In this document: piece after piece, positions 39,359-60,076 of the stretch
Position numbering within the stretch: position 1 is the first letter of the stretch
Layout: every line of letters begins with the position of its first letter
Translations under genes and position numbers: made by a program
NCBI GenBank assembly: GCA_001949185.1
Contig: BDGG01000014.1
Coordinates: 589,378 to 653,377 of the forward strand
Length of the DNA: 64,000 bases
Origin: Ramazzottius varieornatus
Taxonomy: Eukaryota > Animalia > Tardigrada
Direction of reading: 5' to 3'
The notes under the pieces: generated by a model
Seen by the model: only the letters and a program-made list of their open reading frames with translations
The model's database searches: none
What the model was told of the DNA's origin: nothing

Positions 39359-40417
39359 ATGAATTGGAATTTGTCCGAACTAGCAAACTCCGTGCAGTCT
39401 AATCAGACACAGCGGATCGACAGTCCACTCTGGTCATTCGATCCGTGCTTCACTCTTGGCGTGTCAGTTAGTGCACTGATGACAACCTGTTCCGTTTTGT
39501 ATCTGTTTCTCCGCGACCTGACCCTCATAACCCCTTTCACAGTCTCCCTTCTTAACCTGCTCGTAGCTAACCTCTTGTTGTGCCTCTTATTCTATCCGTT
39601 TTTTCTCATTGAACAACTCTACCTCACATGGCCGATCGGAAATTCGTCATGCACTCTGTACCAATACGGTGCGTGGGTCATTGCCGGGGCGTTATGCAAT
39701 ACGCACGCCTTGATCGCGCTGAACCGACTCTGGGCAGTATACTTCCCGGACTCGTACCGCCGCAAACACAAGAAGAAGCTCGCGTTCTGTGAGTGCCTGG
39801 GTATGTGGATCTACCTGCACGTCGGATGTCTACCGGGTATAATTTTGGACCACCTGTGGTATCGTCCTCCGGTGGAAATCAAAGGCTGTAACTTTGTCAC
39901 TGATGCTCCAGCAAGCTGGCTGTGGACAGTACAACTGGTCTACTTTGACTTTCCGATTCTGCTTGTTCTGGGTGTCTATCCGCTGGTGTGCTGGAAGGTC
40001 ATCAAACGCGTGGGGCTAGCTGTGAATCCGATAAATAATGGGCACTCCGGGGCACCAGCTCCCCATGTGTCAGGTTTGCCTGCAGGATTTAATGCCGCCC
40101 AAAGCTTCAACGAGCATCAGATTATTCGTCCGACGCACGGAACTTGCCTGAGCTGTAAACGGCGCGCAGCGGACCGAGGAGTTCCGGTCCTGACCGCGAT
40201 GAGCACGTTGTTACTTGTTGTATACTTCCCTGATCAGCTGGCCTATACTTTGCAAATGATGTTCGATGTTAACATGGACGATATAATACCTGTAGTCTCG
40301 AAGTTGTATCTGCTGAGCACGATTCTTGATCCGGTCATGCTCGTTCTGACAGTCAAAAGGGTGCGCCGAAAATTTCGACGTGTGTACTTTTGCGGCCCCT
40401 GGACTATACATTCTTGA
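39359..40417 (+). CDS. Intronless rhodopsin-like (class A) orphan GPCR
   Basis: 7 hydrophobic segments; LLNLLVAN, WPIG..SC, LIALNRLWAVYFP..Y, ECL2 Cys, YFP in TM6, LDPV in TM7. Confidence 0.9.
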   Translation: MNWNLSELANSVQSNQTQRIDSPLWSFDPCFTLGVSVSALMTTCSVLYLFLRDLTLITPFTVSLLNLLVANLLLCLLFYPFFLIEQLYLTWPIGNSSCTLYQYGAWVIAGALCNTHALIALNRLWAVYFPDSYRRKHKKKLAFCECLGMWIYLHVGCLPGIILDHLWYRPPVEIKGCNFVTDAPASWLWTVQLVYFDFPILLVLGVYPLVCWKVIKRVGLAVNPINNGHSGAPAPHVSGLPAGFNAAQSFNEHQIIRPTHGTCLSCKRRAADRGVPVLTAMSTLLLVVYFPDQLAYTLQMMFDVNMDDIIPVVSKLYLLSTILDPVMLVLTVKRVRRKFRRVYFCGPWTIHS

Positions 40418-45500: not shown

Positions 45501-46886
45501 AGTAAAGTGTGACGTCATCCAATCCGATGAGCGTATCGATGCCTCCGGGCTCTCGTCCAATCAGCGTTCGGACCGTTGCTCGACATTTTCGTTACTAATT
45601 TTGAATTAAACTTGACCACTATTATGAACACACTCTGGTAGTGTACTTACCACTGAACGAGAAATCCCAAGGACTAAAGATCTGACTGAGTCCCGACACG
45701 GATCGACCATGGAGCTGACTGAGGGCGGATCCGCCGGCTGTAATTCCCGAGTCAGCTCTGAGATCCGCGTGCGCAGTCGTTCGCAGTCCGGTGAGCTACC
45801 AGTCAGCTCTCGTTCCTGGACCAGTCCGGTGATGTTTCGGCCAGCTCTCAATCCTTGACCATTCCGATCGTGTTTTTCTTTAGTTTTGGTCGGTTTGTTT
45901 TTGTCAGAACGTGTTCTGACATAGTCCGAACGAAGTCAGGCAGACGGACAGCCTGACGGTAGGCTGTCATGTCATGTCAGAAACTTCTGACATGACATAT
46001 ACCATCCGGCGCATGTACAGCTGTAGCATTCAACTACCACCTTAGCAGTCGTCTGCTTGAGAAGGAACCATTCGTTTGGCTCAAGAAAACCTTCAAACAG
46101 AACGAGCGAAAGTTCTTTATTAATTGATGCTGTCGAATAGACACAGAAAATCAGCTCAAGTTTTCTAGAAGAGCCTCGGTTTCGACTTTTCGACCACTTG
46201 CTTCCATTGTGCTTTCTGTGTCATGCCACGTCACGATTATACCCCGCCCGACCAAAAAATGCGCAGAATCACCAGCGCGTGCAAACTGCGCGTGTGCGCA
46301 CTAGCCAATCGGGTTCGAAGTCGTTCTGTCTCCGATGGCAGTCCGTTTCGGACATGAACAGGATCGAGATCTGAGTAAATATCCGTTGGTATGCTCTTTA
46401 CCAAAACAGATATCCAACTGCCAATATTACGTAACTTAAGGTCGGGATCACAACAGAGAGGGGAGCACTCTTGTACAGAGAAATTTCTGAGCCGCTGCCC
46501 AGATCCCTTCCTAGAGAAAATCTTGAGCGATCTTCCGACTTCGGAAATCGTTTTGCATGTTTTGATTGGCAGGATTTGCTCTTGGTCATCCCGCCATCGG
46601 GGATATTTTTCTTGATTGTCCGCACGCTACAGACCAACCCGTCCACCGTGGACTTTGGACTCTGACGTCGGTCAACCTATTTTCAAAGTTTGTCCCATAG
46701 TTCCGCGTTTTACATCGGGTACCACAGCAAGCGCCCAAGCCGTCCGCAGTCTTTACAGGAAAAGTTCTCCGTTGTAATAAGGGTTCGGCTAATTTATGGT
46801 AATGGGGGATAACTATTCTCTTTGAATCTACAAAGTGTTACGGGCGTAGGACGAATTTCGTAATCAAGCGGGATACGGTAAAGACA

Positions 46887-49800
46887 CTAAAACGGAAGCA
46901 AAGCTAGGTCATTGTCATTGTCAAGATCTTGATCCAGGGGCTCCAGGTCTCCGCCCTCTTCAGCAACGTCTTTATCGGCTTGCCCGTCACTAACTGCCTC
47001 AATGCGGTCTTCCTTTGTGTCGATATCCCAGTAGTCATTCTCAAGCTTGATGCAATGGGCGAAGAGCTTGGAGAAGTCTTCTGGCTTGAGGATATCAGGT
47101 GATAAGGTATGACTTGTCGGCCATCAACATAAAATTTTATTACAACTTTGCCCAGTTTGAATCTAACCCTTTTCAGTCGAAGTATTCACCATCACTATCG
47201 ACACACTTTTGCCATTTTTCCGGTAGACAAGATAGGCCTTTACGGAAGGCGAAGTTCTCGAAGGCACTTTTCACAGCTTCTTCGGAATTGAATTTTCTTC
47301 CTCTCAAAAAGTTATCAAAATTCGAAAAGAAGTGATAATCTGTTGGAGCTAAGTCAGGACTGTATGGTGGATGAGGAAGAGTTTCCAGACCGAGCTCGCG
47401 TAATTTGGCAGAAGTCTTTTTCGCGGAGTGAGCTTTTGCATTGTCGTGTAGCAGCAGGGGCTTGTCACGATTGACCAACTTTGGTTGCTTGACGGTCAGC
47501 TTCTCCATCATTTCCTCCAGTTACAGAGAGTAGTAGTCTGCTACTATTGTTTTGCCAGGAGGAAGAAAGTCAAAGTGCACTATCCCTTCCATTGTCCACC
47601 AAACAGTAACCACGATCTTGCGTTGGCTTTGGAATAGTTCTCGGGACTTCACCTGGGCTCAAAATTACCTTCTTCCACTTCCGGTTGTTGTAAAGAATCC
47701 ACTTCTCATCACACGTAACAATTCGATGCAGGAAAGGTTCATTTCTGGAACGGTTGAGGAGAGAAAGACACACGTCCACACGATGCCTTTTCTGGAGTGC
47801 GCTAAGTTCATGAGGTACCCACTTTTCCAACTTTTTCACCTTACCGATCTGACGAAGGTGCAAATCGATAGTGGCGTCTTCACCAAACACATTGTTGATA
47901 TTCCGGGCTGTCTGTGCAGCGTTGGTGCCGCGACGAAATTCATACTCGAAAATAGTCCGTAACTTGCTCTTGTCCATGGGCGCACCAATAACTCCACAGA
48001 GAGGGCAGAAGCAACAAACTAACATGAACGAAGCAGCGAAAGATAGTAGACGAACACTAGCATCGACACAAAAAAAACGAGACGAAACGATCGCGCTAAA
48101 AGAGAGATATGGATTTTTCAATGTGAGACTGGTGTGGGCCGACAAGTCATACCTTATCACCTGATATCAGCAGATTCTTCCCACAGCTTGATCAGGTCAG
48201 GCAGCTTTCTGGTGGTGTTTTGCTTGGTAACATAACCTTTGCGACGGGCCCAGCATTTTTAATCGGGTTGAAGTCACAGTGGTAGGGCGGCAAACGAACT
48301 GTCTCGATGCCTTCTTCGGTCTTCAAATAGTCATCCATGTATCAATAGTACCTGTCGCCCACGTGATTTTTCAGAAAGTCCGTCACCTTCTGCCACAGCT
48401 CGGCCACCAGTTCCCGCGCACTAAACTCGATCCTATGGTCAGTCAGCCACTGCTGGTTTTGTTTCTTCACTCTCTTAGGTCTTCTGAACTGTGGCATCGA
48501 GCGGGAATGATAAATTGCGTTATCCAGCATGATCACAATCGTGTCATATCCGTGGAGCCGAGTAAATTCTTTCAAACGGGGAACCACCACCTCCTTCATG
48601 AACTTAAAACCATAACAGCCAAAATTTATCATGACGTCATCGAAAACTTGAAGCATTGGCATTCCGTCACGGTAAGAGTTTCATCACAAATTCTTTCACA
48701 ATCAGAAAGACCCAGTCACCATATTCGTTTTGTCTGCTCGGACCGGAAAGATCCAACCAATGGTTTGCGAGATCAATTTTGACCCCCTTTTTTTACCCCA
48801 CTTGATTGACCTGGTGCAACGAGCAAATCTCTTCCGAATGAAAAGACCATCAAAACAGATCATACAAAATTTGATTGATTGATTTGACAGACTGGCTTAC
48901 TTCTCGTAGTTTTGGTAGTTGAAATTCCCGTGGTAGTCCCCAGTGTGCTTTGAGGCTTCTCAGATAAGTCCAAATCCGGGAAAGAATACCCTATCCGTCA
49001 CCAGGTCGAAAATGACCAGACGCTTTCCCGATCCACTTGGATGCAACTGTCCGCAGTCCTTGCACAGGATTTCGGCTGTGCCGGTGGATTTTCCTTTGTC
49101 GAGTTCAATCCAACTCTTGCGAAACTGGTAGTTCTCGTTTAACCAAGTCTCATCCAGGAAGGCAATCAGGGCATTCTTCTGTCGAAACTGACGAACCGCT
49201 CGGATGTAACGGATACGCCTGACGTTGAGGCTTGGGTCATCAAACAGGTGTTTAGTGGACCGATCCCGATATCGGAAGCCCATTCAACGTAACACACGAT
49301 ACATCGCGGGTTTCGACACCTTAACACCGACTTCTTCCTTCACCAATGGCAGTAGAGATTCCACCGTAATGTGTATCTTACTCTTGTACTCCCGGTGAAT
49401 GATCGCACGAATTTTCCCGTATTCCGACTCCTTCAACAAGTGCCGACCGACGCCCGCGACACCCTCCATTTCTTCCGTCTCGACAACCGGGTCCAAGGTT
49501 TCATTTACGTCATCTTCCGGAACGGTGTTGCTCTCGACTGCAGTTCCGCTCAGTGGACCAGTTATCAAATCCCAGTTCGTAGTGATGTTCTGGATGGTGC
49601 GTGGACTTTGCTGGCACAGATGCGCGATTGCCTTACGGCGACCTGCCAGAGTGGTAGAGTATATTTATTCGACCCAAAAAACGACTGACCCAGCACTTTC
49701 CATAAATGAGCAATAGGCCTCACATCCACAGGATACAGAGAAGAACTGGAAGACATCTCTCAGCTTCCTGTTAGTTTTGTCAGACTACGGTATACGCTAT

Positions 49801-50029
49801 TGTAGAATACTGTGGTGCATTTGAAAACTGAGGAGACGGTTTTCGCTTGTGTTTGATGGAAGCTCTTATCTCTCCAGTTTTTTTCTGGATGACTCTCCAT
49901 ACTTTCCAGCTGTGATAGGAGAAGACAACAAAGAAGTTGTCTCGACTCTATCGTTTTCCAACGTGCAGCATGAAGGTCAGATGCCAGAAGGCCGATAAGA
50001 ATATCGTCTGTGCCAGTAGCTTTTTTCAT
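46887..50029 (-). pseudogene. Sailor-like DDE transposase pseudogene (about DD87E), interrupted by a mariner
   Basis: LR*MGFRY, AFLDETW, SGSGKRLVI, GDYHGNFN, IVIMLDNAIYHSR, VRLPPYHCDFNPI(E)KCWA; several stops; a 1-nt deletion at the catalytic Glu; frame restored (ADILKPEDF) after removing the mariner. Confidence 0.8.
47095..48164 (-). mobile_element. Nested mariner element (DD34D-type), internally deleted and defective
   Basis: 28-bp TIRs TCAGGTGATAAGGTATGACTTGTCGGCC; TA duplication at 47093-94 and 48165-66; motifs WVPHEL, IVTCDEKW, LHDNAKAH, HPPYSPDLAPTDYHFF, GEYFD; frameshifts and a missing HTH segment. Confidence 0.93.
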
Positions 50030-50274
50030 TTTTTGCCTCCTGACGTCAGAGTGCAAAGACCACGGTGGACGGGTTGGTCTGTAGCGTGCGGACAATCAAG
50101 AAAAATATCCCCGATGGAGGGATGACCAAGAGCAAATCCTGCCAATCAAAACATGCAAAACGATTTCCGAAGTCGGAAGATCGCTCAAGATTTTCTCTAG
50201 GAAGGGATCTGGGCAGCGGCTCAGAAATTTCTCTGTACGAGAGTGCTCCCCTCTCTGTTGTGATCCCGACCTTA

Positions 50275-50900
50275 GTTGATGAGTTGAATGAATGGTCGCG
50301 TTATAGTCCGCCACGATATGCGGCAGCGCGTCATAATACTTGACGGAAGGAATGCGCGCTTCGAACAGTCGCCATATACGCTGACGTAACGTTCAGATCA
50401 TCCTTTTCGTCATAGTCGCCTTGATCTCGTCGTTACCCGTGGAGAAGTGAATTATATCATGTTTCTTACATAGAGCAGGCACTGCTTTACAGTAAAACTC
50501 TCTGCCTTTGTCCGTGTGCAGTTTTTTAGGGATGCCAATCTCGTTAAACACTTTTATCAAGGCATCACGGACTAGCTCCTCCTCTTTTCGTCTTAGCAAT
50601 TGGCAGCTAGCTTTCTTACTGAAACAGTCAACGACAACGAGAACCCAACTGCCGTGTTTATTTTTCGGAGCAACGATTGTTATGTCCATCATGTCCGCTT
50701 GGAACTGATGATGGCTGTCGAGGACGACCACAGGATTGCGTCTAAAACGCCTGCGATGTTATTTGTGCTTTGTGTACGCTGGAATTCGGTTCAACAGACG
50801 CTGGGCTTCCGCTTTCTTTCGCGAAGACGACGCGGCGAGACAACCAGCGGTTCCGTGCTGTTTAAATCCTGAACCAGTTTTAATTCAGCAATGCGTCCAT
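50275..50900 (-). pseudogene. Polinton-type retroviral-like (rve) integrase, degenerate and truncated
   Basis: AYTKHK*HRRRFRRNPVVV...QFQADMMD...LVVVDCFSK...PKKLHTDKGREF...HFST..KA..(E>K)RMI*TLRQRIWR...YYDALPHIVADYNATIHST; in-frame stops; cut by the Sailor TIR. Confidence 0.88.
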
Positions 50901-51134
50901 GCCGCGTTGCTAGTCCACTCTTCGGCGCCACGCGGGCTTTAGGCTGCTTTATTGCCGATCTTGTTTCATCAGACACTGGTGGCATAGGCGGTGCAGAGGG
51001 AGGTAGCGGTGACAGTGGCAGTGGCGGCATGGCGAATTCTTCCGGAAAGGCTTGAAATTTGTGGGAGAGGAACTTTTGCAGGTTGTCAGATACCTCTTCA
51101 TATCGCGCTCGGGGACCATGTAAAGAGTCTGCAT
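50791..51134 (-). pseudogene. Small Pro-rich Polinton ORF, frameshifted
   Basis: MQTLYMVPE start, continuing in another frame as PPLPLSPLPPSAPP; sits between the core-protein and integrase genes. Confidence 0.45.
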
Positions 51135-51140
51135 GGTATG

Positions 51141-51462
51141 TTATTGACTGAGAACGGATCCCACAACCGACTCCAGAATAGGCAGTAGCGCCGCAAAGAA
51201 ACCGCCTTTTTGCACAAGGAGATCCCTCTTATACTTCACCGGGTATTTTTGTAGTGCCAACAGCTTCAGCGGTTTTTTCCAGCGCTGACAAATTTTTTTG
51301 TCTGTTTCCGACAGCTTTGCCGTGTTCTTCACGGTATTTAAGGCCATTTCCTCAAATGCTCGAATATGGTTTTTATCGCAAAACTTTAACAGCAATCGTC
51401 GTTGAGCCGGTTTGAGTGACCTCAGTGTGGTAGGGCGCAAGGCGATAAATTTTCTCCGACAT
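51141..51462 (-). CDS. Polinton/adintovirus small core protein (PX/pVI-like, C-terminal QKGGF amphipathic peptide); probable frameshift near the start
   Basis: RRLLLK...IRAFEEMALNTVK..KL.....KRDLLVQKGGFFAALLPILESVVGSVL matches the conserved QxGGF(L)xxLL protein found next to Polinton ATPases. Confidence 0.78.
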
Positions 51463-52126
51463 CGTGCTCGGATCCGGTATAAACTCGTACTCGTTGACCA
51501 GGTAAAATATGACTTCGGACTCTTACATCTTCTGGACAGTCGGATTTCAAGTCGATCACCACGGGTTCAAATGGGTGGGAGGTAGCTTTCTTGTACGCTA
51601 GGCTTAAATAGTGCTGTCCTGTTTGTTTAGCCAGTAGTTTTATCTGACCGACATCACGCACGTTTTTGAACAAGATCATGTACGACGAATTCAGATGCAG
51701 ATTGCACATACTTTTTCCCTGCTGAAAAATATTTTGACAGATGTGTAGACAATCGACGTTGCGATGATGAATTCCCCGCGTGAACAGATCGCTGGCTTTC
51801 TGATTTTCAGCCACAGTCGATGCCAAATCATCCAAGATTAGCAGATTATTTTCTGTCTTCGTGAAAAAGTTCTCATTGTCTAAAAAGCCTGCGAGATTTT
51901 TCACAAACTCGATCTTTGGCTCGACAGTCAGCATGACATCGTAGGCCTTCTGCCACTCGGCATACGCGAAAACTATTCGAGTTGGAGGACGATCGAACAT
52001 TTCACGCTTATTTTTCAGCAGTCGAAGAACATACTGTGTTTTTCCAGATCCTGTGGGGCCCATGCAGAGGGCCCAGAAGGGAGAGCGAAATCGAAAATCG
52101 TACTCCACAGACTTGAACTTTGCCAT
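51422..52126 (-). CDS. A32/FtsK-HerA-family genome packaging ATPase (234 aa)
   Basis: DFRFRSPF..GPTGSGKT (Walker A), LLILDD (Walker B), LFTRGIHHRN, QNIF, NSSYMILFKNVRD; uninterrupted ORF. Confidence 0.92.
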   Translation of the reverse strand: MAKFKSVEYDFRFRSPFWALCMGPTGSGKTQYVLRLLKNKREMFDRPPTRIVFAYAEWQKAYDVMLTVEPKIEFVKNLAGFLDNENFFTKTENNLLILDDLASTVAENQKASDLFTRGIHHRNVDCLHICQNIFQQGKSMCNLHLNSSYMILFKNVRDVGQIKLLAKQTGQHYLSLAYKKATSHPFEPVVIDLKSDCPEDVRVRSHILPGQRVRVYTGSEHDVGENLSPCALPH

Positions 52127-52691
52127 GACTGCCGTTATCAAAAACGTGGTTGCTACAGCAGAACTGGGATGCCCAATCAATCTACACCACCTGAGCACAT
52201 GTGATATAATGGCGCACTATGTCCCTGAAAAGTTTTCCGGCCTCCTCATACGGAAACTAAAACCGTTTAAATGCCACTGCCAAGTATATCGCAATGGAAA
52301 GATAACCGTCATCGGAGCGCGATCGACGAAGCAGGCTAAAATACTCGCAAATATGTTTTGCCATTTAATCACAAAGCAGGGTTACCAACACGCAGAAGTG
52401 AAAAATTTCAAGGTGGTCAATATTGTGGCTAGCTTCGATCAGCTGAAAACCTTGCCAGATTATTTCGATCGAGTGATGTTTGAACCAGAAAGGTTTCCCG
52501 GAGCTTCGTTCAGACTACTGGAGACAGAAACGACATGTGTGATGTTTCGTTCGGGAAAATGCAATTTTCTGGGTGCTACAACTGAATTAGACATAAAGGC
52601 GGCGGCATTAGAGGTTATGTTGACTCTTTCGTCCGGTGATTCCGCTCCTATCACCAGGGGAACCGACGATACGGCCGATACCCATCTATGA
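52125..52691 (+). CDS. Divergent TATA-box-binding protein (TBP)-like protein, 188 aa, intronless, element-encoded
   Basis: Two TBP repeats: KNVVATAELGCPINL..YVPEKFSGLLIR..QVYRNGKITVIGARS and FKVVNIVASFD..FEPERFPGASFRL..VMFRSGKCNFLGA. Confidence 0.9.
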   Translation: MTAVIKNVVATAELGCPINLHHLSTCDIMAHYVPEKFSGLLIRKLKPFKCHCQVYRNGKITVIGARSTKQAKILANMFCHLITKQGYQHAEVKNFKVVNIVASFDQLKTLPDYFDRVMFEPERFPGASFRLLETETTCVMFRSGKCNFLGATTELDIKAAALEVMLTLSSGDSAPITRGTDDTADTHL

Positions 52692-52905
52692 AATCCGTGT
52701 CAAAGACATCGCTGAGGCTAGCGCTGCTGGAGCTGCTTCGGTCCGACGATGCTTGGTTGGTGCTGCCGTTGCCGCCCAGGAAAATTTTGCCTTCGTCGTC
52801 CGCGGCATAACCATCGAGGTGGTATGGCTGCACGAACACGTCTAAGGTGTCGGGACTGGCCTGGATTGGGGACAGCAGACCAGATTCTCCATGATCATCC
52901 GCCAT
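52651..52905 (-). CDS. Small acidic/Ser-rich hypothetical protein (84 aa) in the Polinton fragment
   Basis: ATG at 52905 just after a strong splice acceptor; overlaps the TBP-like ORF tail-to-tail. Confidence 0.4.
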   Translation of the reverse strand: MADDHGESGLLSPIQASPDTLDVFVQPYHLDGYAADDEGKIFLGGNGSTNQASSDRSSSSSASLSDVFDTDFIDGYRPYRRFPW

Positions 52906-53191
52906 GGGATAGAAATCTAGAACGAAAAAAGACAACATTCAGACCAAACACGGACAGAAGAAAATTCGCACTTCTGCTCAAGCAAAACGCACCTGCACAC
53001 GCTCCTCGCCAGTCCTTTAACCGAGTCTCCTCCGATACGTCGCCTTCTTCACCTGCAAATACAGATGAGCCTACAGAGTGAGAAGTCAGTCTGCAGAACC
53101 GACTTTCCACTTTATACACGGTGGTGACGTCACCCATTGCCGAAGTAAAAAGTAGATTTTGGAAGAGGGATTTCTACTCTATCACTGCCGA

Positions 53192-53581
53192 TCAGAATAT
53201 TACCGTACCTGTAATGCCCGGATACACGCGCCAGAACCTTTCTCCCCGGTAGCGGATATTGCGAGCCACAAAGCTAGTACGGAAGTCACGCATCCAACGA
53301 CGGACAGAAAAGCCACACCCTTGTTGCGTGATGCTCAAGCACAAAGATCGCAGAGCCCGAGTGACGATGCGGAATCCCGAGCTCTCCTCAGGCGGAACGA
53401 CGGCAGCCACATGGCAGAATAAAGCACGACTACAGACGGTGTTGGGATAGTACAGATAGTGACCAAGGCAGAACTGCCCGGTCTTCTGAAACATCCAAGC
53501 TGGATAACATTGGACACAAGAAACGTGTCGTTCAGAACGATGACTCTCACAACCCATCATTTCGTCCTCGCTGTCCGACAT
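53192..53581 (-). CDS. Hypothetical Cys/His-containing protein (MSDSEDE...) in the Polinton fragment
   Basis: ATG at 53581, TATAAA about 40 nt upstream, CxxC and further Cys/His residues. Confidence 0.45.
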   Translation of the reverse strand: MSDSEDEMMGCESHRSERHVSCVQCYPAWMFQKTGQFCLGHYLYYPNTVCSRALFCHVAAVVPPEESSGFRIVTRALRSLCLSITQQGCGFSVRRWMRDFRTSFVARNIRYRGERFWRVYPGITGTVIF

Positions 53582-53669
53582 CTTGGCGACTAACCACATT
53601 TCCGCCTCGTTGTGGTGGATTTATACAGACCACTCTGCATCCAGACGCGGTTTTGCATCTTTGCGTAAA

Positions 53670-53790: not shown

Positions 53791-54489
53791 AGAAAATTTA
53801 AGCCATGCTTTTTATCCTGCCTCAATGACACCAGAACCCATGGACGCTTCGTATCGGGCCATTGTCCGAAAGATGCTCGTGATCCTGGGGCTGGGCACCC
53901 CAATATTCTTCGCCAACAAAAAAGATATACATCTAGTAACCTGCACGATCGGTCTAGTTTTGTATTCAAAGGTTCCTCTCCTTGCTGTGAAAATTGCGCC
54001 CATAATGCCTGTGCTAAAAGTATCTACACCTTTCTCACTAAAATCAAGATGCTGCCTGAGAAAGATAGCCAGGGAAAATCTTTTCCCTTTTCCCGTACCC
54101 TATGATGTCATTTTTTTTCGGTAGAATATGAAATAAAACGATGAAATGAGTAAGGATGTATGTCTGTAGCCTTGGTACGATGACGTAGACCCGACCAAGA
54201 AGATATAAAGTCGTTTACCTTACTCAGTGGGCTTCATAGAAAACATTGCTGAAACGACCGTAATCAGTTAATCCTGAGAATGACCGAAAGTCACAGAACC
54301 TTCGCCTTAAGACCACTAGACGCGCGCACTGAGTCGATTTCCGTTGTTAAGTCGGGGTCGTTACAAAATTTTCGCCAACTATATGCAGTAACAGCAGAGG
54401 CGTGAGAGAAAAATCGTCTATTGCATCTCTCACTGGTCAGATCTGCAGCAGTGGATTTACAGTACAAGCCGGCAGGGATAGATTGGGCC

Positions 54490-54638
54490 AGTACAAAGTT
54501 TAGGCCAAGCGATTCCGAAACAGTGGAACGGAAGTTCGTACGTACGTGTGCAATTCACGCCAATGCACTTTTTGACAATTTTTGTACGGTTAAATTCTCA
54601 AATTTGCCGTCTTTTCCGTTTGGCACAAACTTTGTACT
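54490..54638. repeat. MITE-like copy sharing the core of the 4.0-kb and 38.7-kb elements
   Basis: Core CGAAACAGTGGAACGGAAG..GTACGTACGTGTGCAATT..CCAATGCACTTTT..TTTGTACGGTT; short inverted arms AGTACAAAGTTT / AAACTTTGTACT. Confidence 0.65.
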
Positions 54639-55538
54639 ACGAGGTAAACGTCACAATTCGGGCGTGGTGGTTTTCCCGTCACAATTCGGGCGATGCTGCG
54701 GTATGGGGTGGCAGCACATGTCACGTTTGAATCACAGCTGTGGCGAAAAGCGACAACAGCGCCTCTTCTGGCCTCCCTGTTGAGTTTTTTCCAGGCCTTT
54801 TAGCATTACAGCAACTCTCCTTTCTTCCGAGCACTGTATGTTCAAGATCTAGGCTGTGTTTGTGTTCAAATCTATTTGGCTAGATAGGGAAGATCTTTCT
54901 CCACAAGATAGCATTGAAAACAAACGGATCGAGCCACGAGGTACGAAACTCTAGACCGCCCGAATTATGACGGGAAAATCACTAGGCCCGAATTGCGACG
55001 TTTACCTAGTAGCCCAAACTATCCCCGCGTGCGTGTGGTGACTACAGTGGAGATCTTTGGGTTCATCTTCACTTTTTCGTTTTCGAGCAAACCATTAGCG
55101 ACCAACTATGCTTATAATGCAACTTCGGGTTACTGGGTATTCATGATAAATCATTTGGGGGAACGCATTGCTCCCAAACGTCGGCCATAAAAATTCAAAG
55201 TAATTCACCGATATTTGAACGAAAAATCGGCATCTTTACCTACGTTCCATGCACCAAACGCGGGATGTTTCTTACAACCAATCCAAATGTTTTCTCATGA
55301 GAAAAACGCGGGATGGAGAGCCTGATAAATGGCCTACCGAGTAAGCGGTAAACCGTTGAATCCAAGTGTGGTAGCTTTCTGCAGTGACAAGTCGAATCCT
55401 TCTGAAGGATGTTTTGTAGGTAGTCCTAATTTTACTTTGCTTGTTTTTCGAAATGCCCATCCTCTTCAAAACTTCTGCAGAGCAATCCAATTAACAGATA
55501 CCTGGGCAGCATAAGATTTTAAGGCGACAATGAAATTA

Positions 55539-57022
55539 GGTGAGAGCTCCTCTCACCACTTCTTTAATTGAACCAAATGTGGTGAGATGAACCAGAAAAT
55601 CACCAGTTCACCACCACCACCACGAAAGTGATGTTTCTTGTCACAATCGTTACCAAAGTTCCAGAAATGAGCTTGAGGTTTGCGAGGAACTGGTAGCCGC
55701 AAGGGCTTTGTCAGTTTTGAGCGTTCAAAGTGGCAGATCTAAATGCTGTGATCACCTTGGGAGGCAGTTTTCAGACCTACCAGGAATTTGAACGTTTCAT
55801 GCAACTGTATAAGGACGAGACCTATACCGTTTGGTCGGTGAAGAAAGCACAGAAGCTGAAGGATCAGTACAAGGACACACTTGAGTACAAATTCAAGCAT
55901 CTGGTGTGCAAGCACCATGCTGGATACGAGCCTGTAATGGATACCGAGCGCCATCATACGCGGACTAGCAACACCGGTTGTCTGGCAGAACTGTACCTAT
56001 CAGCAGAAAGCGCACAGAACAGACTTATCATTCGTACCTTCAATAACACTCACAATCATCCTGTATCAGCGGAACTGTATGCTCAGTATCCGGAGAATCG
56101 TCGACTAACGGAAGCCGAAAAGAACGAAGCCCGAGATCTGCGCGCCAACCTTGTCCCAAGTGTAGCCGTTGCGAGGACATTAGCTCAGAAGTCGAACAAA
56201 ATGGTGAGACGTAAGGACATCAATAATCTTCGGTACCGCGACGATACGAAACGTCAAGCTGGAAAGACCGAGATCGACTTGATCAATGAAGTCTTGCACG
56301 ATATGTGAGCTTGTTTGACAGCAAACCAAGCGTGGCGTTGACCTGGCAGGTCAAGCACGAGCTATGGCTGTGCTATTCTCAAGGTGAGGAAGAACTCCGC
56401 TGTCGAAATGAATCAGTACGAGACCAAGTTAACGGCGTCGACTGTGCGTTCTTTGCGCTGACATTTGCTGCTGAAATTGTTGCAAAGAAGAACCCCAGAG
56501 AGGCATCTTTCTCTGGGCAAAGTCTGCGTAGCTGTGTGATCTCGAGTTTTACTGCAAAGAGCGCAACACAGGTTAAGCGTAGACCCGGGCGCGCAGCCGA
56601 GCGAGTTGTTCTGAACTACCAGGACAACTTTACCTTCATTACGCCGGACGACGCGGTGGCGTATTTGGCCCAATGGGCACCGGAGTCGCAACCTAACGCC
56701 GATCGCAGAGTCGTCCCGGAATTATCGTTCTTGAATAGCTGGTTGTCCAAATGAGTATGTACACTGTGGTACTTCTGTGAGTTCTTTGTCAACTCACAAG
56801 ATGATGTGTTCTTCCAGCGACAGATTACGGACATACTACCTAGTTTCTCGTATTTCGGTCACCTCCAGTTGAAATAAAATTCTGGATGGTGGTGCGATGA
56901 GCCGTGGGTGGTGTCAGTAGTTTAAGTATTAGTGGTGAGAGAAGCCCATCGGTGGTGTGTCAATTAAAACCGGTGGTGAGATGAGCCCATCGGTGGTGCC
57001 GGTGGTGAGAGGAGCCCTCACC
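55539..57022 (+). mobile_element. Mutator-like element (MULE), internally deleted, carrying a Ulp1 protease remnant
   Basis: TIRs GGTGAGAGCTCCTCTCACCAC / GTGGTGAGAGGAGCCCTCACC; 9-bp TSD ATGAAATTA (55530-38) / ATGAAATCA (57023-31); GGTGGTGAGA subterminal repeats. Confidence 0.85.
55730..56754 (+). pseudogene. MULE transposase N-terminus (FAR1/ZSWIM3-like WRKY-GCM1 fold) fused by deletion to a Ulp1-like protease C-terminus
   Basis: F.TYQEFE...LVCKH...TGCLAEL...HNHPVS..Y..YPENRRL...KDINNL; then LFDS...QVNGVDCAFFALTFA (Ulp1 catalytic Cys motif); no DDE core. Confidence 0.78.
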
Positions 57023-57682: not shown

Positions 57683-58720
57683 ATGAATTCCTCCGAACCC
57701 TTTTACCAGCTGCAGGCTAACCTAACGCAAACGTTCGACGGACCCAACTGGACATTTGACCCATGCTTTGCGCTTTGTGTATTAGCTAGCGCTCTTTCGA
57801 CAACCAGCTCAGTTCTGTATCTTTTTATACACGACCGCTCTATCGTGACACCATTCACGATTTTCTTTCTCAACTTACTCATAGCCAATCTTATGCTGTG
57901 CATTTTTTTCTACCCCTTTTTCCTGGTCGACCAACTCTATTTGACATGGCCGATCGGAAATTCGTCATGCACTCTGTACCAATACAGTGCGTGGGTCATT
58001 GCCGGTGCGTTATGCAACACGCACGCCTTGATTGCGCTGAACCGATTCTGGGCAGTGTACTTCCCGGACTCATATCGCCGCAAACACAAGAAGAAGCTCG
58101 CTTTCTACATATGTCTTGGTATGTGGATCTACCTGAACGTCGGATGTCTACCGGGTGTAATTTTGGACCACCTGTGGTATCGTCCTCCGGTGGAAATCAA
58201 AGGCTGTAATTTTGTCACTGATGCTCCAGCAAGCTGGCTGTGGACAGTACAACTGGTCTACTTTGACTTTCCGATTCTGCTTGTTCTGGGTGTCTATCCG
58301 CTGGTGTGCTGGAAGGCAATCAAACGGGTCAGACGGACTATTAGACCAGTGAATGAAGGGCTTTCAGAAACAGCAGCACGTCAGGTATCAAGCCTGCCTC
58401 AAGCAACTGACGCGGCCAAAAGCCCCAATGGGCCTCACCAGGCCCGCCCCAACGTCGGAAGATGTTTTCAGTTTGAGCTGCGCGGAGTGGGTCGGGGTGT
58501 GCCGGTGTTGAGTGCCATGACCTTGATGGTACTGATTGTGTACTTTCCCGATCAACTGGCCTACACTTTGCAGATGATGCTCGATGTCAACATCGACCCT
58601 GTATTACCTGTGGTCTCGAAGCTGTATCTGCTAAGCACGATTCTTGATCCAGTTATGTTCGTTCTGACGGTCAAAAAGGTGCGACAGACATTTCGACGAG
58701 TGTATTTTTGTGGTTTGTGA
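57683..58720 (+). CDS. Intronless class A orphan GPCR, close paralogue of 39359-40417
   Basis: 7TM; long stretches identical to the 39.4-kb copy. Confidence 0.9.
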   Translation: MNSSEPFYQLQANLTQTFDGPNWTFDPCFALCVLASALSTTSSVLYLFIHDRSIVTPFTIFFLNLLIANLMLCIFFYPFFLVDQLYLTWPIGNSSCTLYQYSAWVIAGALCNTHALIALNRFWAVYFPDSYRRKHKKKLAFYICLGMWIYLNVGCLPGVILDHLWYRPPVEIKGCNFVTDAPASWLWTVQLVYFDFPILLVLGVYPLVCWKAIKRVRRTIRPVNEGLSETAARQVSSLPQATDAAKSPNGPHQARPNVGRCFQFELRGVGRGVPVLSAMTLMVLIVYFPDQLAYTLQMMLDVNIDPVLPVVSKLYLLSTILDPVMFVLTVKKVRQTFRRVYFCGL

Positions 58721-58993: not shown

Positions 58994-60076
58994 CTACAGA
59001 AAGGGCAAATATGTACGGAGAAAAGAGGTACGCAGTTCCGACAAGGACAACAGGAACCAGACAGGATCCAACACTGCACCCAGCTCGTACAGGATCATGG
59101 ACTTGGAGAACATGCCTGGGACGTCGATATCAAAAATGATGTACAAGGTGAAGTAGAATAGTGCGGGGCTGTAGCAGATCAGGAGGCTTAACGTCATGAG
59201 CGAAACAGCCAGGAACCCACGACTGCCACGCCCACCTCCACACTGCGCATTACGGCAACAACAGGTCGTACCAATTCGTCTACAGTCCTTACGTCCTTCC
59301 GCCTTCGTTGGTAGAGCCGCATTGTTTGCGGTGACCTTTGAGCCCGATGGACTTCTCGGCTCTCCATGCTTGTGCAGGGTTGCCTTGGTGGGATTTTCTT
59401 CGGCAGGTAAAACCCGAGTTCGTAAGCGGCGGACGGTTTTGTAACAGATGACCGGGTAAATTAGCAAGACCAGAACCACCGGCCCGTCCATGAGAACCAG
59501 CTGCGCAAACCACAGCCATTCCTTCGGAGCGTTCGTATTGATGTTACAGCCGTTAGTCTCGACAGGTGGACGGTACAGCAACACGTCCAGGACGATACCC
59601 GGTAGCACCATGACGTGGAGACATACCCAAGCCACGATGATGACAATGAAAGCGAAGAGCTTTTTGTGGTATCGACGATATGTGACCGGAAACGTCACGG
59701 CCCACAGTCGGTTTAGAGCGATGAGGGAATGGCTAACAAAGACGCTGCTACAGAGGACCCAATTTGACCACTGGTAGAATGTGCAAACGGCATTGGGCAT
59801 CCACCATTTTGGATAGAGTTCGGCGATTAACTCGATGGGGTAGTACAGAGTGGCAACCAGGAAGTTTGAGACGAATAAGTTGAGAATGTAGACAGTGAAA
59901 GGAGTGAGCAATGAAGGAGTCAGAATGAAGAGAAGTAACGTCAGTCCGTTGGTGCCGGTGGCGCTGATCTGGATGAAAAGAGTAAAGGAGGGCGTGAATG
60001 TCCAGTTGGGATCGTCGATCAGGCTGGGGCTAGTCTGATATGTTGCGTTGAAGAGAGACGACGAATCGTTGACCAT
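58994..60076 (-). CDS. Intronless class A orphan GPCR, more distant paralogue
   Basis: 7TM; LTPFTVYILNL, LIALNRLWAVTFP..YRR.HKK, YRPPVE..GCN, LDPVW shared with the other two. Confidence 0.9.
   Translation of the reverse strand: MVNDSSSLFNATYQTSPSLIDDPNWTFTPSFTLFIQISATGTNGLTLLLFILTPSLLTPFTVYILNLFVSNFLVATLYYPIELIAELYPKWWMPNAVCTFYQWSNWVLCSSVFVSHSLIALNRLWAVTFPVTYRRYHKKLFAFIVIIVAWVCLHVMVLPGIVLDVLLYRPPVETNGCNINTNAPKEWLWFAQLVLMDGPVVLVLLIYPVICYKTVRRLRTRVLPAEENPTKATLHKHGEPRSPSGSKVTANNAALPTKAEGRKDCRRIGTTCCCRNAQCGGGRGSRGFLAVSLMTLSLLICYSPALFYFTLYIIFDIDVPGMFSKSMILYELGAVLDPVWFLLSLSELRTSFLRTYLPFL

Follow-up and report, generated by a model that had tools for sequence, protein, structure and literature searches.

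A truncated Polinton in the tardigrade Ramazzottius varieornatus belongs to a lineage encoding a reshaped TATA-binding protein, a probable promoter factor for its late genes

The 64,000-nucleotide stretch of Ramazzottius varieornatus DNA analysed here (contig BDGG01000014.1; hereafter the window) holds a remnant, about 4 kb long, of a Polinton (Maverick) element that carries a gene for a TATA-binding protein (TBP). Of its TBP, ATPase, core and integrase genes, only the first two are open. The TBP gene (52125..52691, plus strand) is a stop-free, intronless open reading frame (ORF) of 188 amino acids (aa), present as a slightly degenerate copy, and lies head-to-head with the gene for an A32-like packaging ATPase (51422..52126, minus strand), the two start codons overlapping. 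The Pox_A32 match of the ATPase is barely above the cut-off (23.3 against 22.8 bits), and along 55% of the protein the identity to RvY_18743 of the same species is 92%. Further along the minus strand lies a basic core-protein gene with a QKGGF ending (51141..51462), 52-56% identical to its homologues in two of the related loci described below (L001 and L003) and frameshifted near its 5' end, the start being in a different frame from the body; the L003 homologue has a weak Adeno_PX match, under the cut-off. It is followed by a degraded remnant (50885..51140, minus strand) of the ORF found between core gene and integrase in the relatives, which contains stops and is recognisable by a 27-aa match to L001 (E 8e-4), and by a remnant of an rve integrase (50275..50865, minus strand; rve domain 50396-50692, 53.3 bits), which has lost its C-terminal part and carries two in-frame stops at 50759-61 and 50393-95.

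The integrase is cut at 50274 by a Tc1/mariner-type DNA transposon (46437..50274), itself outside the Polinton, which has inverted ends of 233 nt and is flanked by TA on either side; a mariner nested in it (47091-48168) is skipped by the contigs of other copies. No Polinton homology was found in window DNA to the left of 46437, and the rest of the Polinton is therefore missing from the window. Searches with the ORFs of five related loci as queries (E<=0.01) detected no homology to pPolB, capsid or protease genes anywhere in the 64 kb. Read inward, the probable right end of the element (54303..54317) gives AGTGGT, which resembles the (AGT)2 motif described from Maverick ends, and contig cover from sister copies drops between 54169 and 54316; no matching left end was found within the window. 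The remnant reaches about 54317 and so extends beyond the interval treated in a preliminary description of this DNA, which had reported the TBP gene beside an A32-like ATPase, a QKGGF core gene and an rve integrase. The genes were correctly named and the ATPase is open, but the core gene is frameshifted and the integrase broken, and the copy is a degraded fragment: unlike Polintons in general, it is without pPolB, capsids and protease and has lost one end. Diverged sister copies are represented among contigs of this organism, which cover the TBP and ATPase genes, continue past 50274 into other sequence and fall off near 54.3 kb. Summed depth over the remnant is several-fold that of the unique flanks, a value that is no copy number and is taken only as a sign that diverged sister copies exist; contigs of putatively RNA runs cover the TBP gene together with flanking repeats and were not used as evidence of expression. 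The window copy is a decaying fragment whose function is perhaps lost. It is filed here as a Polinton fragment, the lineage being placed as Polinton by the sequences of its relatives.

The window TBP matches the Pfam TBP family (PF00352) with 114.9 bits in two stretches, against a cut-off of 22.9. An upstream ATG is present at 52062, and homology begins only at 52125. The ORF had been described as an intact TBP with both repeats; it is indeed open and retains both, but 5-6 residues are missing after residue 105 relative to relatives and sister copies, as an in-frame gap, and at residue 63 it is the sole departing row among 28 family rows. The asparagine pair, the four DNA-intercalating aromatic positions and the acidic stirrup noticed earlier were all located in the alignment (N7, N99, F37, Y55, F124, F141 and E120-P-E122). 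The HMM and structure checks proposed for the protein also favoured a TBP fold: AlphaFold2 with a 25-row alignment gave a pLDDT of 92 over residues 1-170, a prediction from the single sequence being poor (pLDDT 47) and uninformative, and the top Foldseek match of the model was yeast TBP in a pre-initiation complex (TM 0.88, E 2e-17, 30% identity). Identity to cellular TBPs among the structure matches was 26-30%, while the TBP-like proteins of giant viruses matched more weakly (best E 9e-11, 8-19% identity). A search of the ESM Atlas returned generic TBP clusters only.

Relatives of the window TBP were found at about 35-77% identity, among them a Paramacrobiotus metropolitanus protein already named TBP-like, which is a member of the same clade. 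In a tree of 174 rows, 36 rows fell into one TBP group. A mixture-model tree of 50 rows, which included two TRF2-like rows only and no tardigrade host TBP and whose bootstrap had not fully settled, united 21 clade rows with support of 100/100 on a long stem within the eukaryotic TBPs, with no resolved sister. An origin of the clade from TRF2, supported at 80 in a quick tree, disappeared in this more careful one and was discarded. The separate clade, together with non-conservation of the basic residues R137, K138 and R141 (yeast numbering, see below), bears out the earlier remark that the protein is too divergent to be the host TBP. Seven other divergent TBP-like proteins (P0104, P0102, P0068, P0066, P0130, P0159 and P0269) lie on long branches outside the clade and are possibly further viral captures.

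A metagenome scan yielded five confirmed TBP-clade loci among 472 pattern matches, and all five (L001-L005) have Polinton context, which bears on the question, raised in the preliminary description, of whether TBP stays linked to the element in other copies. L001 and L002 show the head-to-head TBP-ATPase arrangement of the window, and L001 has in addition the core gene, the integrase and what are presumed to be capsid genes. L003 is near-complete, with ATPase, core gene, integrase, presumed capsids, an adenain gene (Peptidase_C5 match), a PC4-like gene, TBP and pPolB. In L004 and L005 the TBP gene is tail-to-tail with pPolB; the polymerase beside TBP was recognised by Pfam in L003 and L004 and by alignment in L005. 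Either the ATPase or pPolB adjoins TBP in all six fragments. L003-L005 have a common contig prefix and L004 and L005 are close sisters, so that the five loci represent three or four independent sources. The capsid candidates of L003 had no library match; they were named by gene order, by 31% identity to L006, a Polinton without TBP, and in part by motifs that we take to be those of capsid proteins. No relative turned up in IMG/VR when it was scanned with the TBP, the first TBP alignment, the ATPase of the window and an L003 capsid candidate.

Directly before the TBP gene of L003 (7961-9876), L004 (1-1049) and L005 (1694-3662) lie one or more PC4-like ORFs and a conserved ORF of 146 aa; the latter has a dN/dS of 0.08 and no family match, and by motif we take it to be nuclease-like. 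A PC4-like gene was considered as a feature specific to TBP carriers and dropped, as the TBP-less L006 has one too.

One 20-row clade (starred) of the ATPase tree contains the ATPases found in the window and in L001, L002 and L003. Within it, 5 of 16 database rows match a clade TBP in longest-contig size, against 0 of 48 rows outside, an indirect comparison tallied by eye; a sixth database row is L001 itself. Selection across copies, another analysis proposed earlier, could be gauged from one pair of TBP genes: dN/dS is 0.075 for L004 against L005 (dS 0.30), 13 of the 15 pairs being saturated and one more nearly so. Six differences are listed that separate the window TBP from its sister copies; three are synonymous, and the number is too small for use. 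Because of the clade tree, the Polinton context at all five loci and the purifying selection, the view that the clade TBP is borne by the element and not by the host is supported.

The surfaces of the protein were compared by aligning 28 clade rows with 22 canonical TBPs and numbering the positions as in yeast TBP; the numbering anchor is an assumed one, with which the known Phe and Glu positions fall in register. F99, N159, F190, F207, K120, K211 and E188 are kept in all 28 rows, R105 in 26 and N69 in 25, and the window TBP has both C-lobe glutamates, E186 and E188. The concave face is changed at T112H (27 of 28 rows), L114Q (23), F116Y (26), V122T (26), Q158V (28), I194S (19), V203T (25), L205V (27), V213N (28) and T215L (27); position 124 is also altered and fixed in 27 rows. 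Most of the changed positions presumably face the DNA. The rows are only about 45% identical, yet this rebuilt DNA face is nearly invariant among them, and the basic patch of helix 2 is lost, with R137, K138 and R141, and also R107, not conserved. The yeast mutant TBPm3 acquired TGTA binding through I194F, V203T and L205V (PMC1636458); two of these changes, V203T and L205V, occur naturally in the clade at the frequencies given, and the third position, 194, is changed as well. A Tyr in place of the L5.1 Phe is described as affecting TATA binding, the C-lobe glutamates as binding TFIIB, and the basic N-lobe cluster as binding TFIIA, TAF1, Brf1/2 and Mot1 (PMC7221094). We infer that the clade TBP would have an altered DNA specificity, would retain the TFIIB contact and would escape the N-lobe regulators.

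A candidate target was found in the six TBP-bearing fragments, surveyed on both strands (36,379 nt). Among 21 intervals 15-200 nt before structural-module genes (two starts guessed, one 14 nt off), ATTTAAG occurs in nine and ATTAAAG in five, and no 7-mer attained nine in 400 random interval sets. TATAWA occurs in none of the 21 and TGTAAA, the TBPm3 target, in one, without enrichment. Of the 19 ATTWAAG sites in the six fragments, 16 precede a structural-module gene by 36-262 nt and lie on its sense strand (6/6 sites in L003, 7/7 in L001); 11 of the 16 read ATTTAAG, and nine are preceded by T to give TATTWAAG. The box stands ahead of 12 of 15 structural-module genes in two of the TBP-bearing loci, six of eight in L003 and six of seven in L001. 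Structural coding DNA (13,176 nt) contains 11 sites against 3.4 after synonymous shuffling (0/1000), with antisense sites at the shuffled level (1 against 1.3), and the boxes before orthologous L001 and L003 genes lie at differing distances; protein constraint is thus not the cause of the boxes. Canonical TATAWAW is distributed differently: seven of its 12 sites in the six fragments precede non-structural genes (pPolB, PC4-like, Fic, terminal ORFs and the window ORF starting at 53599) by 26-92 nt, and none is within 262 nt before a structural gene. Neither TATA nor ATTWAAG, by the patterns used, occurs within 260 nt before the TBP gene in the five loci or the window.

In the window, an ATTTAAG box (TATTTAAG; 51603..51609, minus strand), a candidate late promoter, lies 147 nt before the start of the core gene. 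A one-mismatch box, ATTTAAA (52266..52272, minus strand), lies 146 nt before the ATPase start in the antisense strand of the TBP gene and was chosen after the fact; in L002 the corresponding codons of TBP contain an exact box.

The TBP-less comparison, L006 (1-12321), is a complete Polinton of 12.3 kb with terminal inverted repeats and a pPolB with a weak endonuclease VII match. Its structural gene order is the same as in the TBP-bearing relatives, and ATTWAAG precedes none of its eight structural genes; TATAWAW precedes three of the eight, little over the background of 18%. TATAA-type sequences were also observed 36-79 nt before five of its structural-module genes.

Taken together, the window copy is a truncated Polinton from a lineage in which a reshaped TBP is stably encoded, and the protein is probably, though with considerable doubt, a late-gene promoter factor that reads ATTWAAG and recruits host TFIIB and RNA polymerase II. 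The non-structural genes behind canonical TATA boxes would be transcribed first, by host TBP. The viral TBP would then bind ATTWAAG, often as TATTWAAG, ahead of the genes for packaging, core protein, integrase, capsids and protease; its retained acidic stirrup would bind host TFIIB, and host TFIIB and polymerase II would in this way be brought to the virion module, while loss of the helix-2 basic patch would free the protein from control of the TFIIA/TAF1/Brf1/Mot1 type. A promoter-selectivity factor, the role suggested in the preliminary description alongside that of a decoy, is favoured over the latter because a conserved but rebuilt DNA face coincides with a matching non-canonical box before the structural genes.

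Several observations weigh against this reading, in which every step from binding onward is a prediction. The changes at TBPm3 positions make altered specificity plausible by analogy and do not indicate which box is read, the yeast mutant having gained TGTA and not TATT; E186 is kept in just 17 of the 28 clade rows. In the window only one exact box stands where expected, two more lie on the opposite strand, and the one-mismatch sites before its ATPase and integrase were picked afterwards. The distance from box to ATG spreads widely, from 36 to 262 nt, and no box precedes the core-integrase ORF in L001 or L003, or one further L003 gene. Five of the 16 placed sites contain ATTAAA, a variant of the poly(A) signal. 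L006 is the sole TBP-less control, is AT-richer (36% GC) and of another lineage, and has a single ATTWAAG at 15 nt ahead of one gene, narrowly outside the counted interval; six plus-strand ATTWAAG sites are present in the viral contigs L007 and L008, whose ATPase is distant (27%) and which have no TBP. TBP and ATPase distances show no significant co-variation (Spearman 0.28, p 0.11, n=9).

Among the alternatives, the one that survives best, though we think it unlikely, is that host TBP or a host paralogue reads the box as a genuine promoter, the viral TBP serving as a general booster or substitute without specificity of its own. TATTTAA is a one-base variant of TATA, and the positions of V122T, Q158V and I194T are also changed in the two TRF2-like rows; however, a DNA face that was altered and then held near invariant would be left without a reason, as would the occurrence of TATAWA before seven non-structural genes but in 0/21 structural intervals and the lack of the box in the TBP-less element. 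Somewhat less credible is a decoy role, in which the protein would titrate host TFIIB or sit on host promoters, damping host transcription, and the box would have another reader. Invariant E188 combined with loss of the regulatory N-lobe patch is what a dominant-negative protein would require, but a decoy alone does not explain the invariant rebuilt face or a box present in TBP-bearing elements and absent from the TBP-less one, and the two roles could coexist. It is improbable that ATTWAAG is an RNA 3'-end, replication or packaging signal, with TBP as a DNA-bending protein in a non-transcriptional step: the ATTAAA-containing sites, three sites at or beside the stop codon of the upstream gene and the constant proximity of TBP to ATPase or pPolB speak for it, whereas 11 of the 16 sites are ATTTAAG, the pre-ATPase sites of L001 and L002 are on the TBP antisense strand where no upstream gene ends, most of the other sites are inside coding regions, and the TFIIB stirrup is retained. 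A host TBP retrocopy landing by chance in a dead element, with which the degraded state of the window copy and the intronless gene would agree, was rejected as scarcely conceivable in view of the separate long-stemmed clade, the 26-30% identity to cellular TBPs, the head-to-head layout shared with L001 and L002, the Polinton context at five of five loci and the dN/dS of 0.075.

The proposed late-promoter function has a close counterpart in KSHV (Kaposi's sarcoma-associated herpesvirus), which uses conventional promoters for early genes and a late-gene TATTWAA motif read by the TBP mimic ORF24 (PMC12529657). The two systems are alike in comprising a DNA virus without its own polymerase for transcription, canonical promoters before its early genes, a virus-encoded TBP fold whose DNA face is more polar (PMC12529657) and a TATTWAA-type box before virion genes, here ATTWAAG with the element TBP as its predicted reader. 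ORF24 has several domains, makes direct contact with Pol II, depends on five other viral factors and is without the TFIIB-binding acidic residues (PMC12529657). The Polinton TBP, unlike ORF24, consists of a bare core (about 170 aa) in which E188 is retained, and it falls with eukaryotic TBP; because of these differences the likeness is likely to be convergent, the protein probably working alike without being a member of the same family. That a captured eukaryotic TBP, re-specified to TATTWAAG and still using host TFIIB, provides a one-protein early-to-late switch converged on the gamma-herpesvirus late promoter is a proposition to which we give an even chance.

Cellular TBP and TRF2/TBPL1 share with the clade the two-repeat saddle, the Asn pair, three of the four Phe (the fourth being Tyr) and the C-lobe glutamates; the clade differs in at least 10 changed DNA-face positions, in having no helix-2 basic patch and in having no N-terminal tail. 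The TBP-like proteins of Nucleocytoviricota likewise represent a TBP fold encoded by a virus, but they match the window TBP less well in structure than cellular TBP does (E 9e-11 against 2e-17). Nucleocytoviricota often encode their own TFIIB; no TFIIB match was found among the ORFs scanned here. Loss of the N-lobe signature has been reported for viral TBPs (PMC7221094).

With Polintons, Mavericks and adintoviruses the window shares the rve integrase, the A32 ATPase and the QKGGF core gene (PMC8097293; PMC8502044), to which the relatives add pPolB, an adenain-type protease and presumed capsids in a gene order as in the complete L006. Intact vertebrate Mavericks are described as intronless (PMC8097293), whereas the pPolB of L003 (10495-13641) and of L004 (1545-5596) is in several ORF pieces with breaks at matching places, which suggests spliceosomal introns. 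Near the element ends, accessory genes were observed for a Fic-domain protein (L004 5838-6647, 60 bits) and a weak BIR/IAP-like ORF (L003 1118-1408), each with a canonical TATA box ahead of it.

TBP had been thought to lie outside the standard Polinton gene set. This holds for vertebrate Mavericks, whose eight listed core genes do not include it (PMC8097293), but Starrett et al. (2021) label a TBP gene in figure legends for MELD viruses with adintovirus-like PolB (PMC8502044 Fig. 5; bioRxiv 10.1101/697771 Fig. 5, 6). TBP in a Polinton-like virus is therefore already on record. The label stands in the section on non-animal datasets, where no residues, promoter or function are discussed (PMC8502044); the part of the supplement covered contains no TBP match. 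A literature search mainly on Polintons and Mavericks, with figures, bioRxiv supplements and subscription papers outside its range, returned no account of the clade, the altered surface or a Polinton late box, and no promoter or transcription factor is described in the Polinton literature searched. TBP or TATA terms are absent from PMC11161782 and bioRxiv 2023.08.22.554363, 2026.06.19.733378 and 2026.10.13.758929; PMC8097293 has no match for TATA, the only term looked up there, the sole match in PMC12220804 is a name in the reference list, and the relevant text of PMC10675990 mentions TBP only for mirusvirus-like elements.

For animal Polintons, virion production and the manner in which their genes get switched on are open questions, and a named protein with a named 7-nt box makes the late-promoter reading directly testable. 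If true, it would amount to a built-in late-gene switch in small viruses, akin to that of some herpesviruses, and to the simplest orthogonal TBP-promoter pair known, and the sequences would then testify to a timed virion programme that these Polintons run for themselves. A TBP whose specificity has changed in nature while its TFIIB surface was kept would show the limits within which the TATA-reading face can be rewired, and could serve as an orthogonal promoter tool.

The right arm of the remnant contains two further ORFs, for which the family scans gave no match. A small ORF (52651..52938, minus strand) is tail-to-tail with TBP and has a TATAAA on the same strand at 53116; directly upstream of this minus-strand box is a TGACGTCA site (53111-53135), which we take to be CRE-like. 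A Cys-rich ORF of 135 aa (53192..53599, minus strand) has a canonical TATAAAT box 26 nt upstream (53619-53625). Elsewhere in the window, a FAR1-like ORF lies at 55799-56308, several MITE-like inverted repeats are present (e.g. 54490-55000), and three intronless host genes for 7TM receptor-like proteins were observed at 39359-40417, 57683-58720 and 58994-60076, two of which are 74-80% alike.

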